Source: an uncultured Planctomycetaceae bacterium
Lineage (GTDB): Bacteria; Planctomycetota; Planctomycetia; Planctomycetales; Planctomycetaceae
DNA length: 64,000 bases
Assembly (NCBI GenBank): GCA_963815195.1
Contig: CAWFGE010000013.1
Location: 1,024,001 to 1,088,000 of the forward strand
Direction of reading: 5' to 3'
This document shows positions 53,057-64,000 of the stretch, one piece after another; the stretch's first letter is position 1; each line of letters begins with the position of its first letter. The notes beneath the pieces are model-generated. The model ran no database searches and was not told the DNA's origin. It worked only from the letters and a program-made list of their open reading frames with translations. The translations under genes were made by a program, and so were the position numbers.

Positions 53057-53419
53057 ATGGGCAAGCCGGAAGGCCGGTTGACGCCGGCGCAGCATGAGAT
53101 CATGGACCTCGTCTGGCAAGCGGGCACGGCGGGGGCCACGGTGACGGAGATCTGGACCGCGATCGCGGACAGCCGGTATGTCACGCGGACCACGGTGTTC
53201 AATCTCGTCGAAAACTTCGCCGCCGTGCCCCGCGATGCCGCCGCGCGGGAGTTGGCCCGGGAGTTTGTGGACGATTTCTTCGGCGGCTCGGCGGGCGATC
53301 TGGTGACGAGCCTTCTGGGTTCCAAACGCCTGCGGAAAGCGGATGTCCGCAAACTCCGCCAGAAACTCGATGCCCTGCTCGCCGAAATCGGCTTATCCGA
53401 CGAAGACCGGCCGAAATAA
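53057..53419 (+). pseudogene. BlaI/MecI/CopY regulator with an apparent internal deletion
   Basis: LTPAQHEIMDLVW...TTVFNLVE jumps to FAAVPR...FVDDFFGGS; the RL.KG.L.R wing segment appears to be missing. Confidence 0.6.
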
Positions 53420-58178: not shown

Positions 58179-58441
58179 TGAGCGGTAGGCGCTAGCCTCC
58201 GGTTTCGATCAAGCGACGTCCCCAACATCAAGACCGGCGGCTAGCGCCGTACCGCTCACTCCGGTTTTATGAGCGGTAGGCGCTAGCCTCCGGTTTCGAT
58301 CAAGCGACGTCCCCAACATCAAGACCGGCGGCTAGCGCCGTACCGCTCACTCCGGTTTTATGAGCGGTAGGCGCTAGCCTCCGGTTTCGATCAAGCGACG
58401 TCCCCAACATCAAGACCGGCGGCTAGCGCCGTACCGCTCAC
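58179..58441. repeat. Three identical tandem 91-nt REP doublets
   Basis: Units start at 58179, 58270 and 58361. Each reads TGAGCGGTAGGCGCTAGCCTCCGGT...ACCGGCGGCTAGCGCCGTACCGCTCA. Confidence 0.95.
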
Positions 58442-58462: not shown

Positions 58463-60454
58463 TTAGCCGCTTTGGTTGATGAAGCGGGCGAAGATGTCGC
58501 GGTTGACGGCGGCGTTGTCGTCGTGGAAATACGAAGAGTGGGCACATTGGGGGCTGAACCATTTGATCGGCCCCAGGCCGTATTGCTGGCAGCCGACGGG
58601 GTAGAGGTTCAGAAACTCCTGGTCCACGTCGAAGGGGTTTCCAGCGAGCGGGCCGCCCACGGCGTCGCATTGGGCGTCGAGATTGATCCACTCCACGACG
58701 TGCCGGGGTTTTCGGCCGTCGCGGAACGGCTCGTACAGCCATTTCTTCACTGGCCAGATGGAAAGGGCGCTGCCCACCGTGAACAGGTTCAGCACCCGCC
58801 CGTTCAAGAGAGCATCGTCGAGTTCCCGCAGCCCTTCGTAAGCCACGACCGTCCCCCAACTGTGGCTGATGATGTCCAGCCGGGCGCCGGCTTCTAAATG
58901 AGGCCGGACCACGCTGTGAAACCGGTCGAGGATTTGCCGGCGGGTATGGGGCTGCGTGAGATAGCGGGAAAAATCATCGGCACAACCCAAGCCGGGGATG
59001 CTCAATGCGCCGCGAGCCATGGCCTCCCGCGGCATGGCTTGGGGCACGGCATCTCGCTGCAAGGGGCCCGCCCCTTCGACGATCGCGCGTTCGCTCCGGT
59101 CTTGGAGAACCGCCTTGATCTCCGCCGCCACCTGGGCCGCCCGCTGGTCCTCCGCCCGCGAGCCGGCTTCCATCACCGCCCGATCATTGACGATGTCGCT
59201 CCAGTTGACTTCGTGCCGCTGGTGTTCCAGTTCATTTCGCAGCGGCAACGAGAGATAGGGACTCATCGCCTTCCACCACGGGTCCGAATAATGCGGCAGA
59301 TGCTCGCAAATCCCGTGCACATACACCAGATGCCGCTCGGCACCGCGCTCTGCCGCGGCCAGCGGCGCGCGGCCGGAACGAAAATAGCCGATCAATTCCT
59401 GCAGGAGTTGAATCAGCAATTCGTCCTTGGTCCCCGCAGGCTCCGCGCCGTTTGAGGGCGGCGACGGAGGCCGCGACGTGGATTCCTTAAACCGGAACAG
59501 CGGCCCTTGGGTGCCCGCGGGCTCCAACTGCGGCACTTGGGAGAAGGAATTGGACTGCATCCAATCTCGCACGGCCTTGATGAGTTGCTGGTGCCCGACA
59601 TCGCTTCCCTGGCTCTTCACCAAAGTGCAGAATCCGTGCGTGAAGGCCCCGCGGTAGGTTCCGCCGATATGGGCGTCGGCGCTGGTTTGATCGTTCCGGC
59701 AGCCCGCGAGCAGGACATGCTTCATTTCCTTTTCCGCATGCTCGCCCCGGACTTCCCCCGAATAAAATGCGCTGCGGACCGTCGCCTTTTTCGCGCGCTC
59801 GCGGATTTCGGGCGGCGGTTCCACAAAGCGGGCCAACACGGTTTGCCGCTCCGCGTCTTCTTGTTCTTCTTCGGTGTCCGTGGAAGCCAGCGACAACGCC
59901 CGCAGACCCGCCTCGCCGCCGCCGGCCCGCGCGTGGGTGTCGCGAATAATCTCCAGTGGCAGCTTCTCCGCCACCAACTCGGCCGAACGCAGCGAACCCG
60001 GCGGCACGAGGACCCGCGTGCCGGTGCCGGAATGGCAGGAATCCAAAATCACGGTGAGCAAGACGCCTTCCGGGACTTCGTGCGTCATTTCCCACAACTC
60101 ATCGTCCAGCAGATAGCTTTCCGCATCGTCCCAGTCCATGTCGTAGAGACACAAGAGTTCGTCCCGGTGGTCGTCTTCCTCGTCGCCGTCCTGATCGACG
60201 GTGTAAGAGCCGTGGCCGGAAAAGTGAAACACGAGCCGATCGCCGGGCTTGGCCCCGCGCAACAACCATTTCCAGCCGCTTTTGATCTCGTCCTTTGTGA
60301 CGCGGTTGTCGGTCCGCGTGCGAATGTTGGTCTTCGAGAAGCCGAACTCCTCCACGAGCAGCGATTCCATTTCCGCCACATCGTTCACGCAGCCACGCAG
60401 GTCGCTCACGTATTTGTAGTTGTTAATTCCATTGAGGAATGCCTTGTCGGTCAT
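58463..60454 (-). CDS. Caspase-family (C14, metacaspase-like) protease fused to a C-terminal alpha/beta-hydrolase domain
   Basis: GINNY, LRGCVND, HFSGHG (His), DSCHSG (Cys) and SQVPQL motifs; then VYVHGI, ISHSWG, FTVGS, D.V and HSSY. Confidence 0.9.
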   Translation of the reverse strand: MTDKAFLNGINNYKYVSDLRGCVNDVAEMESLLVEEFGFSKTNIRTRTDNRVTKDEIKSGWKWLLRGAKPGDRLVFHFSGHGSYTVDQDGDEEDDHRDELLCLYDMDWDDAESYLLDDELWEMTHEVPEGVLLTVILDSCHSGTGTRVLVPPGSLRSAELVAEKLPLEIIRDTHARAGGGEAGLRALSLASTDTEEEQEDAERQTVLARFVEPPPEIRERAKKATVRSAFYSGEVRGEHAEKEMKHVLLAGCRNDQTSADAHIGGTYRGAFTHGFCTLVKSQGSDVGHQQLIKAVRDWMQSNSFSQVPQLEPAGTQGPLFRFKESTSRPPSPPSNGAEPAGTKDELLIQLLQELIGYFRSGRAPLAAAERGAERHLVYVHGICEHLPHYSDPWWKAMSPYLSLPLRNELEHQRHEVNWSDIVNDRAVMEAGSRAEDQRAAQVAAEIKAVLQDRSERAIVEGAGPLQRDAVPQAMPREAMARGALSIPGLGCADDFSRYLTQPHTRRQILDRFHSVVRPHLEAGARLDIISHSWGTVVAYEGLRELDDALLNGRVLNLFTVGSALSIWPVKKWLYEPFRDGRKPRHVVEWINLDAQCDAVGGPLAGNPFDVDQEFLNLYPVGCQQYGLGPIKWFSPQCAHSSYFHDDNAAVNRDIFARFINQSG

Positions 60455-60580
60455 GGGAATCGCCTTTCTTTCAGGGTGAAGTATCGAAGACAGGTTTATT
60501 GATCGGTTCGCTCTGATGAAAACCGGGGCTAGCGCCCTTCGGCTGATTTTTCGATACGAGGCCGACTCACCGGACACCGC

Positions 60581-62611
60581 CTAAACCGATTGCAGTGCCC
60601 GAAGGATGTCGAGCATTCCATGCCCTTGGAAGTATTTCTCCCGGCCCAGGTCGGTGGCCGTTTCGCAGAGGATTTTCTTGATGATCTCGGGCTTGCCGAT
60701 GAACTCCGGATAGCGGGCCATCAACAAAGCCGCGGCCCCGCTGACGTGCGGGGCCGCCATGCTGGTCCCATCTTGCAGCAATTGCCGCTTCCCCGGGATG
60801 CAGGAGTTGATCTTCTCGCCCGGAGCGACCAGGTCGGGTTTCAAGCGGCCGTCGCCAGTGGGACCGCGGCTCGAAAAATAACTCACGCCGTAAGTGTGCG
60901 GGCGATGGCGATGGGTCGAACCGACGGTGATCACCGCATCGGCGTTGCCGGGGTCGGTGATGGACACCGTCCGAAACGCGGGCAGCGGATGGTAGCTGTC
61001 TTCGGCCTGGTAGCCGTCGTTGCCGGCCGCCGCCACCACGACAATCCCCTCGCCCACCAGCCGCGCGCACTCGTTGCAGACGGGCGTGCTGCCGCAGGCG
61101 TAATTGGCGACTTCGTGCTTGATCGACAGGCTCAGATTCACCCCGTGCACCTTGCGGACGGTGCTCTCGCCGTTTAAGTGCCGAAGAAATTGGAGTGCCG
61201 CCATCACGGTGAACTCATCGCCGCCCCCATGCTGGTCGAACACCCGCAGATCCAGCAGGTTGAGATCGGGGCAAATGCCCTGGAGGACCACGTCTCTATT
61301 TTCCCGCCAATCGCCGGCGAGAATGCCCGAAACGTGCGTGCCGTGGCCGCCGTTGGGGACGGGGTAGTGCTCATCGTAAGCCACTTGAATCAAAGGCCGC
61401 ACGAGGTCCCAATCCAACGTCCGACCGCTTTGCAAACTTTCGCGAAGCGCATCGCGGATTTCCGGATGCGTTTTCAGCCGCTGTTTGAGGTCTTCGGGAA
61501 AGTTCGATTGGTCTTCCTGATCCAAGGACAAGAGCGCGCGGATTTGTCCGAAATCATAAGTCGCCCGGACGCGGGATCGCTCCGGCCAGTCCATCGCGTC
61601 CAGTGTCTCTTCGTCCGCCGCGAGCGGGGCGTGGCGATAAAACGCCGGGTGCGTGGCATCGATTCCGTTGTCCACAACCGCCCAGGTCAACGGTTCGCAG
61701 CAGACCGCGAACAACCGGCGGGCGGCATCCGCCTTCACGGCCATCGCGGAATACTTGACCGCCGACTCCACGGAGCGGTTCAAACTCACCTGGGCGATTT
61801 TGGGGAGTTCCTTTTGATTGGGCGTGACGTCGATGTCCGTCAACAGACGGGCCGTAGCCTGGGCAATTTTTTCGTAATAAGCGACGCACCGCTGAAACAG
61901 CTCTTCGGTGGTTTCGCCCGTCTGACGCACCGGCGGCGGCCAGAGCCGATCGAACGCGTTCTGCCGCGACCGGACCGTCTTCTTGGCATAGACCGTCCAG
62001 TGCAGCTCGGCGATGGTGCCGATGACCCTCGCCATCCATAACACATCGTAGGAGACCTCGTGCCGGCGGTTGATCCCCAGGTCGATTTCCGCGAGCCATT
62101 CCGCCAGGTTGTGTTGGCCTTCGCCTGTATGAATCAAGTCGGCATCACGCCCCAAGGGCCCGCGGATTTCCTGTTGCCAGCGCTCGGTTTGAGGCAAGAC
62201 GACGCGGACGAGTTCGTCAAAGTCCATCCGGGCGGTGACGGCGAAGTGATGGCACGCCAACTCGCGGGGGCGGTCCTCCGAACGCGGCCAATCGGGATGC
62301 CGGGCCCGGTCGCTGTTTAACGCCTCGCGGAGATAGGCCGCCAATTGAAACGCCGCCGGCGCGCCGATTTCCGACTGGTCGGGAGTGATCAGCAAATCGA
62401 CCATCCGGCGGGGAACGGCCGGTTTTCCCGGCAGCGACGTTTTCGGGGCTTGCTCGGCGTAGGCCATCCACACGTCCGACAGTACGGGAAAGTCCTGCGT
62501 AAACCGCGTCGCCGGCCCGCTGGCATAAAGCAGGTTTCGGAGATCTTCACGACTCAACATGCAAACGCACCATCCGGGAGAAAAACCGCGCGAAGAAGAT
62601 CCATCTGCCAC
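60581..62611 (-). CDS. S8 (subtilase) serine protease with a long N-terminal extension
   Basis: VVDNGID (Asp), HGTHVSG (His), AAGN, KPDLVAPG and GTSMAAPHV (Ser) motifs. Confidence 0.93.
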   Translation of the reverse strand: MADGSSSRGFSPGWCVCMLSREDLRNLLYASGPATRFTQDFPVLSDVWMAYAEQAPKTSLPGKPAVPRRMVDLLITPDQSEIGAPAAFQLAAYLREALNSDRARHPDWPRSEDRPRELACHHFAVTARMDFDELVRVVLPQTERWQQEIRGPLGRDADLIHTGEGQHNLAEWLAEIDLGINRRHEVSYDVLWMARVIGTIAELHWTVYAKKTVRSRQNAFDRLWPPPVRQTGETTEELFQRCVAYYEKIAQATARLLTDIDVTPNQKELPKIAQVSLNRSVESAVKYSAMAVKADAARRLFAVCCEPLTWAVVDNGIDATHPAFYRHAPLAADEETLDAMDWPERSRVRATYDFGQIRALLSLDQEDQSNFPEDLKQRLKTHPEIRDALRESLQSGRTLDWDLVRPLIQVAYDEHYPVPNGGHGTHVSGILAGDWRENRDVVLQGICPDLNLLDLRVFDQHGGGDEFTVMAALQFLRHLNGESTVRKVHGVNLSLSIKHEVANYACGSTPVCNECARLVGEGIVVVAAAGNDGYQAEDSYHPLPAFRTVSITDPGNADAVITVGSTHRHRPHTYGVSYFSSRGPTGDGRLKPDLVAPGEKINSCIPGKRQLLQDGTSMAAPHVSGAAALLMARYPEFIGKPEIIKKILCETATDLGREKYFQGHGMLDILRALQSV

Positions 62612-62715
62612 CCGCGCAGAACTTCTCCGCGAGTACAGGAATAACGATTGTTGATTGATGTCTAGCGAGGGGTAAACGAGCGGGGACTCGCGTACTTCTC
62701 AGGAGGACTCCGGCG

Positions 62716-64000
62716 TCAGTGTCCGCCTAAGCCGGTGTCGCGATCCGTCCGCGGCTTTTCAGTCTTTTCTGGAGTTGCCTTCGTGTCGCCGTCGTTGTTT
62801 CCATTTTGTTCGTGGCTTTTTCCATTGTGACCCCCGGCTGGTCCAGGATGTTGCTGTTTAAGGAATTCTTTGATGTCTCTCTGTCGGAAAAACTTTTTGA
62901 CTTCTTTTACCTGTCGTCCATATTGGTCGAGGATTTTGCAGAGAAACCCTTTGATGTCGACATCCTCTTCCCGGCGGAAGTGTTCAATCAACATCATGCA
63001 TAATTGCCGGCGTTCGCCGCGCGTCAGCCGGTTGCTTTTTGGAGTTTCCGCGAGGCTTTCCATATAGTTGGCGATGACGAAACAAACCGACATGCGAAGC
63101 TGCGGGTCTTCCTGATTCAGCCCGTCTTGGAGCGCGTGCAGCTTTTCACAAAACGGCACCGCTTGGTCAAGCAGTTCCCGGATCCCGTCGACATAAGCCT
63201 CCGGATCCGGTTCCGGAGCGGGCGCGGGGCCGGCCGGTTGGGGTTGGCCTTGCGCTCCGCCCGCGCGATCGCCTTTTGGGGCTTCTTCCGAAACGGTCGG
63301 ACGCCAATACGCCAGCCAGGGGGAAATCAACTCGCGTCCGCATGTTTGATCCTGCTCGGCAGCCTGAATGGCGGACGCTTTGAACAAGTGCTCCCAAACC
63401 TCCTCGCCGATGTGCTCGCCCAATCGGCGATAGCTCTCGAACTTATGCGAATCGAAAAACTGATCGTACGTCGGATCGTGCGGGAACACGGGATTGTCAT
63501 TGCGGTATTGCACCACGTCGGCCGGTTCGTCCCCGTCAAACGACGGCTTGACGTAAATCAAATAGCCAATCTCCGAATCTGCGAGTCCCGCCTCGTCGGA
63601 GAAGCGGTCCTTCGGATAATGAATCGCCGCGACCACGTAATGCGAGCGCAAGGCCCTTTTTGCGGCCTTCCTTTTTGTGCTGGAGCAGTTCCAAGGGAAT
63701 TCGATTGCGATCAAACGGGTTCGGACCGGCGGACGTCGCGGCATCCTGGCTGGGTTTAAAACGAACCCCGGAAAACACTCGGCCGAATTCCGTCCGCTGA
63801 TTCTCCACGAGCGCCAAGAGGTCGTGGAAATGGCAGTCTTCATCCTGGCTGGCATCCACGGCGATAATCACCCGGCAGCGCCGGTGCATCAGGCTCGCGA
63901 TTCCCGTGTTGTCCGCGAGGCCGCCGTCCGTCACAAAACAGTAGTTGTAATATCTGGGATCGCGGAGCAGCATGTCTCTCAGCAAAGGCAGCGGCGCGGG
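62716..64000 (-). CDS. Patatin/cPLA2-like phospholipase, C-terminal part (frameshift at about 63660; N-terminus outside the window)
   Basis: VTDGGLADNTGI..L..RRCRVIIAVDAS in one frame; IHY, LIYVKPS, Y...NP.FPHDPT.DQFF...KFESYRRLG in the next; helical C-terminal tail. Confidence 0.75.

Follow-up and report, generated by a model that had tools for sequence, protein, structure and literature searches.

The analyzed window, a 64,000 nt stretch from an uncultured Planctomycetaceae bacterium (contig CAWFGE010000013.1, positions 1,024,001 to 1,088,000), ends with three co-directional genes on the minus strand (58463..64000; genome G000), which encode a patatin-like protein, an S8 subtilase and a C14 metacaspase fused to an alpha/beta-hydrolase. 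Judged by sequence comparison, the metacaspase::alpha/beta-hydrolase fusion is the conserved element of this locus and represents a homolog and one-chain variant, in a new form, of the caspase-hydrolase module of Evans et al. (10.1101/2025.11.14.688446). With a probability of roughly 60%, the metacaspase cleaves its own chain behind three arginines and thereby frees and activates the hydrolase, and S8 and patatin are encoded as separate, exchangeable modules. The module reported in 2025 would be extended in this way to a fused and apparently self-sufficient form. The case for a three-gene cascade is weaker than proposed in an earlier reading of the DNA alone (referred to here as the sequence-only reading).

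The fusion gene (58463..60454, minus strand) encodes 663 amino acids (aa) in a single frame and matches Peptidase_C14 with an E-value of 3.8e-26. Metacaspase and hydrolase were found fused in 156 homologs. The metacaspase domain comprises residues 1-312 (59519..60454, minus strand) and shows a type II-like layout of p20 and p10 without an N-terminal prodomain. It contains the His-Cys dyad H81/C140, an acidic S1 pocket of S79, D138 and D260, an acidic loop at residues 87-99 and a long p20-p10 linker of approximately 100 aa with conserved arginines (R147, R209). These elements (dyad, pocket, acidic loop and linker arginines) are retained in 78 to 84 of 87 fused representatives (selected at less than 75% identity), and the loop carries at least four acidic residues in 83 of the 87.

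By model and sequence, the closest structures are the plant type II metacaspases AtMC4 and AtMC9 and the yeast metacaspases. The pocket residues correspond to S84, D137 and D352 of AtMC4, which accommodate Arg or Lys, and the acidic loop matches the AtMC4 L5 loop, which the accessible part of the AtMC4 work ties to Ca2+ activation (10.1101/2020.03.09.983940). The arrangement p20-linker-p10, the dyad, the Ser/Asp/Asp pocket, the L5-like loop and the basic linker residues are shared with AtMC4 and yeast Yca1. In contrast to both, the metacaspase analyzed here is bacterial, has a shorter linker and is joined in cis to its predicted substrate. The fusion contains no sensor domain.

A helix at residues 343-359 (59378..59428, minus strand) lies between two disordered linkers, and a similar helical segment starts the unfused members of the family. 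The alpha/beta-hydrolase domain follows at residues 374-663 (58463..59335, minus strand). Its triad S532/D597/H639, with S532 in the motif SHSWG, is invariant in 37 aligned homologs, and the domain also has four invariant cysteines (383, 491, 622 and 637). The domain has no Pfam match, a search of its profile against the sequences of solved structures gave nothing significant, and the look-alikes found in the Atlas are unnamed alpha/beta-hydrolase clusters only.

The hydrolase domain finds plasmid-encoded hydrolases of about 290 aa, several of which adjoin caspase genes. An hhalign comparison of 22 fused domains with 12 plasmid and genome hydrolases gave 99.5% and an E-value of 5e-23. The stand-alone hydrolases of loci L125, L087, L089 and L093 carry two motifs of Arg or Lys followed by Gly, at about positions 71-73 and 111-116. 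These motifs are resembled by R73 and R117 of LcHydrolase, which was itself compared by eye only. LcCaspase cuts LcHydrolase at these two residues and the outer fragments then kill E. coli, according to the accessible text of Evans et al. (10.1101/2025.11.14.688446). Homology of the fusion hydrolase to the family of this published caspase-cut zymogen is well supported by the sequence profiles.

Three cut sites were predicted in the fusion. R370 (59345..59347, minus strand) would release the hydrolase from the caspase, and 81 of the 87 fused representatives have an Arg around this position, compared with 6 of the 39 unfused ones. R425 (59180..59182, minus strand), followed by Ala, is the predicted first internal site (86/87 fused vs. 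10/39 unfused). R481 (59012..59014, minus strand), followed by Gly, is the predicted second internal site (84/87 vs. 6/39) and lies in a low-confidence loop of the model (pLDDT < 50 at residues 463-475 and 480-483). Of the caspase-fused representatives, 83 of 87 have an Arg at both internal sites, compared with 4 of 39 unfused ones; about 30% would be expected given the Arg content of 12.6% in the intervening segment. In a second set of representatives, all 41 fused members have the first internal site and 39 of 41 have both, the position of site 2 drifting while R-G is kept. One of the four unfused sequences with both arginines is the frameshifted fusion of genome G001, and the remaining three nest among fused members. 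Since all 39 unfused representatives keep the triad motifs, the site arginines are not required for the fold. At two of the sites, 45% Ala was found in the unfused proteins.

The residues at the sites also vary with other proteases. S41 proteases favour Ala, and the genes of Arg-less, Ala-rich hydrolases in L098, L112 and G868 are immediately preceded by an S41 peptidase gene; in protein P0371, S41 is fused to a hydrolase with Ala-rich sites. S41 was not found in five genomes with fused hydrolases. A trypsin fusion (P0368) keeps the arginines, and an M4 fusion (P0387) is without them. Since trypsin::hydrolase and hydrolase::S8 fusions occur in the wider family, a protease-hydrolase fusion as such is not unique. 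The covariation of site and protease offers a way to read protease specificity off effector sequences. Protease gating of the hydrolase is thus well supported, because the domain is homologous to the zymogen family and the Arg sites track the fused metacaspase. The same hydrolase domain was additionally seen fused to ferritin-like, SLOG, tyrosinase, M4, astacin-like and amidase domains (P0362, P0367, P0372, P0387, P0400, P0420).

Compared with the LcCaspase-LcHydrolase pair, as far as it is described in the accessible text of Evans et al., the fusion has a homologous alpha/beta-hydrolase and an Arg-specific caspase-like partner. In both, two predicted cuts flank an internal insert (56 aa in the fusion, 44 aa in LcHydrolase) and a small residue follows the Arg. 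The fusion differs in being one chain instead of two genes, and its metacaspase has a long linker and lacks the C-terminal extension seen in the Lc-type caspases. Its hydrolase belongs to a distinct subfamily (HGIC, HSWG, four invariant cysteines) with about 25% identity to the stand-alone profile. Furthermore, its Arg columns are different and a third site is predicted to release the domain. In the accessible part of Kaur et al. (PMC8195603), such hydrolases are mentioned only as bDLD3-fused effectors. No description of the fusion or of the trio was found in the literature covered, which did not include the supplement of Evans et al., where the fused form may be shown.

The second gene of the locus encodes the S8 subtilase (60581..62563, minus strand; 660 aa; Pfam Peptidase_S8, E-value 2.5e-40), with an N-terminal region of 265 aa that has no assigned role. 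The catalytic residues D298, H407, N515 and S601 are present and invariant in 55 aligned homologs. A scan of the genome collection with the single S8 sequence returned one locus, and the S8 contexts were therefore taken from plasmids and planctomycete genomes. In all six near-full-length plasmid homologs, as well as in G209 and G683, the S8 gene is followed by a gene of the metallo-beta-lactamase (MBL) fold, and upstream of the plasmid pairs lie small patatins, FRG or TIR genes, depending on the homolog. A comparable pairing is known from the work of Evans et al., to whose S8-MBL clade 3 the S8 family may correspond, and from that of Tuck et al. (PMC12799240) on proteases paired with MBL pro-nucleases, as presented in the accessible parts of both. 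Unlike these modules, G000 lacks the MBL gene: no match to the G683 MBL was found anywhere in this genome (94.6% complete), and none adjoins S8. The S8 gene of G000 is likely left over from an S8-MBL module. The S8 and the fusion protease both belong to large families, whose named homologs point to a planctomycete; the S8 family is patchily distributed (3 of 41 relatives, 7 of 401 genomes of the phylum). On one plasmid (L078:6379-13054), cyclase, E2 and TIR genes are followed by S8-MBL, so that an S8-MBL module is joined to a nucleotide-signalling system.

Near 63650, the reading frame of the patatin-like gene breaks, leaving two frames. The first frame (63536..64000, minus strand, with its start beyond the window; 1009 aa) encodes a large membrane protein that matches Patatin (E-value 2.5e-9) and PLA2_B (E-value 4e-4). 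The second frame (62716..63660, minus strand) matches the C-termini of intact homologs. The motifs SGGGIR (60), TVSGG (91) and DGG (880; 63928-63920), which we take to be the patatin catalytic motifs, are present together with five predicted membrane segments. The sequence-only reading had counted two lipase-type domains at the locus; the motifs DGG and SHSWG confirm this, while 'lipase' is a fold-level label for the hydrolase. The break amounts to a net +10 nt compared with G001, which reads through at this place. It is likely an assembly error, because 5 of 25 conserved G000 genes scored (from 208 queries) are also frameshifted. G001 and G002 carry frame breaks at other places. Two DNA read runs were checked, the better of which may be the source sample, and the reads do not settle the break. 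Programmed frameshifting was considered and is not favoured, since G001 reads through in frame.

A decayed locus, in which S8 has been orphaned by loss of the MBL gene, the patatin gene is truly broken and the conserved arginines are structural or incidental, was regarded as very improbable. The missing MBL gene and the split patatin gene would fit such a remnant, as would the alignment of R481 with an Arg that the stand-alone hydrolases conserve and the lack of a listed indel at the break in the two DNA runs, for which read cover of the break site itself was not shown. Against it stand the intact catalytic residues, the 91% identity of S8 and fusion between G000 and G001, the triad kept by Arg-less members, and the frameshifts in other G000 genes and at other places in G001 and G002, which point to the assembly.

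The patatin-like protein is likely an independent membrane phospholipase effector. Seventeen matches to large patatins were obtained, of which seven regions were read: on plasmids, most of these genes stand among TIR, CBASS-like pair or heme-enzyme genes, and one stands behind a caspase-hydrolase pair. Nothing that links S8 or the metacaspase to the patatin was found. Patatins serve as effectors (CapV/CapE) in CBASS, and caspase and subtilase proteases are associated with bacterial gasdermins. The locus shares the patatin catalytic motifs and both protease classes with these systems. In contrast to CapV/CapE, its patatin is large, multi-pass and cPLA2-like and has no PADLOC match. No CD-NTase/cyclase gene occurs in the unit or its flanks and no gasdermin gene among its three genes. 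A second large patatin of G000 (L124; G000:C22:151000-170500), which is also split, is preceded by genes for a RoxA-like cytochrome c and a cyclase-AAA-TPR protein.

For the neighbourhood census, 32 planctomycete genome loci with the hydrolase were used, 28 of which have at least 3 kb on either side. In addition, 56 metagenome loci were examined after removal of 4 duplicates, and 36 of these contain the hydrolase domain; they are mostly short, and at least one repeats a genome locus. Among the genome loci, S8 and a large patatin were each found in 5 of 32 and both in 3 of 32 (G000, G001 and G683). An M4/M36-like peptidase with an MBL gene is present in 5 of 32 and a CHAT fusion in 3 of 32, and 18 of 32 loci have no scored partner. 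Neither S8 nor patatin was found in the 36 metagenome loci, of which 7 extend 3 kb on both sides. The gene order is patatin-S8-MBL-fusion in G683, a four-gene form, and S8-fusion in G644 and G011. G002, which belongs to the same genus as G000, has fusion-peptidase-MBL with a divergent patatin. The trio occupies different surroundings in G000 and G001, which argues for a local and itself mobile assembly of modules. S8 and patatin are accordingly likely to be separate, exchangeable modules and not steps of one cascade.

The peptidase paired with MBL is an HExxH protein of 640-760 aa, which has no Pfam match and is M4/M36-like by the Atlas. The pair was seen in L105:4945-8645, L095, L104, L106, L114, L008, L017 and L028, and adjoins the fusion in 5 of the 32 genome loci and 8 of the 36 metagenome loci. 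Three MBL clades are named in the accessible text of Evans et al. (10.1101/2025.11.14.688446), none of them with a metallopeptidase partner. A parallel caspase-lipase fusion was observed in L042-L046 and L049, where a metallophosphoesterase gene is combined with a caspase::DUF7379 fusion, twice followed by a large patatin.

These counts bear on the cascade inferred in the sequence-only reading, in which the trio is one system, S8 activates the metacaspase and/or the patatin, and two lipases are released for anti-phage death. Protease gating of the hydrolase remains from this proposal, but a single conserved three-gene cascade does not, and the co-conservation of the three genes elsewhere largely fails. 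The co-directional arrangement at different places in G000 and G001, the S8 gene directly before the fusion in G000, G001, G011 and G644 and the frequent presence of a second protease module (M4/M36-like with MBL, CHAT fusion or S8) beside the fusion would agree with it. The same holds for caspase, hydrolase and large patatin recurring on an unrelated plasmid (L125) and for the caspase::lipase fusion with a large patatin in L045/L046. Apart from the 3 of 32 and 0 of 36 loci with the trio and the 18 loci without any scored partner, the patatins argue against it: the G683 patatin is 25-42% identical to that of G000, the closer one of G002 (45-59%) lies on the opposite strand without S8, and the plasmid large patatins mostly keep other company. 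In addition, no conserved S8-specific site is apparent by eye in the caspase linker. One cascade is therefore considered unlikely and retains its weight mainly because the loss of MBL in three genera has left S8 next to the fusion.

Several observations weigh against self-cleavage at the three arginines and against independent modules. In the first representative set, 77 of 310 sequences were unclassified and excluded. The second set (130 representatives, of which 48 were unparsed and excluded) overlaps partly with the first and was read with wider limits for site 2; in it, 11 of 33 unfused members still have both arginines. The contrast between fused and unfused proteins rests on few independent events, because a single clade of 31 (support 0.81) makes up most of the Arg-less group, to which a few poorly resolved sequences add; a Fisher test of the contrast therefore overstates it. 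The Arg columns bracket the same insert as the published Arg-Gly columns but do not align with them: R425 lies some 12-15 residues before the published site 1, and the counterpart of R481 in the alignment is a later Arg, which the stand-alone family likewise conserves. Of 5 further genomes with unfused hydrolases, 4 yielded no S41. The unfused proteins P0385, P0392, P0394, P0398, P0400 and P0406 have hydrophobic, signal-like N-termini and are mostly Arg-poor, which suggests exported forms. The adjacency of S8 and fusion without MBL in four genomes (3 genera) would also be explained by a functional link. Finally, the defence-island enrichment suggested as a check by the sequence-only reading did not emerge: in an uncontrolled count of 97 nearest neighbours of 27 loci, real defence genes occur at one locus, which has a divergent unfused hydrolase. 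A divergent unfused hydrolase heads a type I restriction-modification operon in L122:64-9628, which also contains a patatin and a SMODS nucleotidyltransferase.

For the autoactivated fusion favoured here, the following course is proposed. A rise in Ca2+ or a similar damage signal would relieve autoinhibition by the linker, as in AtMC4 and fungal metacaspases, and the metacaspase would then process itself in the p20-p10 linker. Cuts at R370, R425 and R481 would free the hydrolase and excise the 56-aa insert. The matured hydrolase may attack an ester substrate, probably a membrane lipid, and the cell would be killed or arrested. The cell-killing or defence role is predicted, because the cut homolog is toxic, the spread is patchy and MBL-nuclease modules are nearby. 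The hydrolase was found in 13 of 251 genomes of the family, 22 of 401 of the class and 1 of 401 of the phylum, and in an actinomycete sample weak matches occurred in 2 of 201 genomes. The unpublished genome G435 was not used as a basis for any statement.

A role in damage response or lipid signalling, with the fusion acting as a protease-matured hydrolase at lysis, after it or extracellularly instead of as a phage-triggered death effector, has a low probability. It would suit the location outside defence islands, the housekeeping surroundings kept across genus g319, the four invariant cysteines, which could pair in an oxidising compartment, the signal-like N-termini of unfused relatives and the wound- and Ca2+-activated metacaspases as nearest protease structures. 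P450, catalase-like, heme peroxidase and RoxA-like cytochrome genes were also noted in the vicinity of some S8, patatin and fusion loci; these neighbours are inconsistent between loci, and an oxylipin pathway was dropped as a reading of its own and kept within this one. The killing of E. coli by the related LcHydrolase once cut, as stated in the accessible text of Evans et al. (10.1101/2025.11.14.688446), the absence of a signal peptide from the G000 protein, and the patchy spread with MBL-nuclease pairing, which fit conflict systems, speak for the death effector. In g319 (L099-L103, several species), a shorter-linker fusion of 586-602 aa stands alone among housekeeping genes (ffh, trmD).

More tentatively, the fusion could be a one-chain, sensor-free damage switch in which a Ca2+-gated metacaspase matures its own hydrolase on envelope breach. 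The hydrolase would then be a portable zymogen with cut sites rewritten for each protease (Arg for metacaspase or trypsin, Ala for S41, others for M4), and S8, M4/M36-like and CHAT proteases would be optional upstream amplifiers. Ca2+ gating, if true, would connect plant wound signalling with cell death in bacteria. The residue-level predictions (R370, R425 and R481; C140; S532) can be tested with one purified protein, and the trigger and substrate of this hydrolase class are directly testable in a single chain with a eukaryote-like metacaspase.

The layout of the locus largely agrees with the sequence-only reading. The three genes are co-directional, the S8 (D298/H407/S601) and C14 (H81/C140) residues are intact, and the two complete proteins, S8 and C14::hydrolase, lack a hydrophobic segment and thus an obvious signal peptide. 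The spacing of about 105-125 nt has to be corrected to 152 nt and, between S8 and fusion, 126 nt when counted from the ATG starts. The continuation of the operon past the window edge applies to the patatin gene itself, whose start (G000:C13:1090565) lies 2.6 kb beyond, but not to further co-directional genes. The unit consists of three genes only, since approximately 700 nt upstream of the patatin gene are followed by a divergent acyltransferase, then a methyltransferase and a tape-measure gene. A promoter and terminator scan of the locus gave a signal at chance level. The PADLOC models 'caspase' and 'subtilase' were matched by the locus proteases. PADLOC and NCBIfam matched no named system to the locus proteins, in agreement with the statement that the genes fit none, but the closely related module of Evans et al. 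has been described.

On the 3′ side of the unit (58179-58441), an element resembling repetitive extragenic palindromic (REP) sequences consists of 2.9 tandem copies of a 91-bp palindromic repeat. This repeat has 157 matches across G000 (85 of at least 60 bp) and none in five related loci. Upstream of the patatin gene, at a distance of 3.6 kb, lies a prophage remnant (L001:16211-19393 and beyond; G000:C13:1094211 onward) that comprises the tape-measure gene together with replication-like genes and integrase-like frames. A short frame at 53057-53419 of the window resembles a BlaI-type repressor and looks internally shortened.

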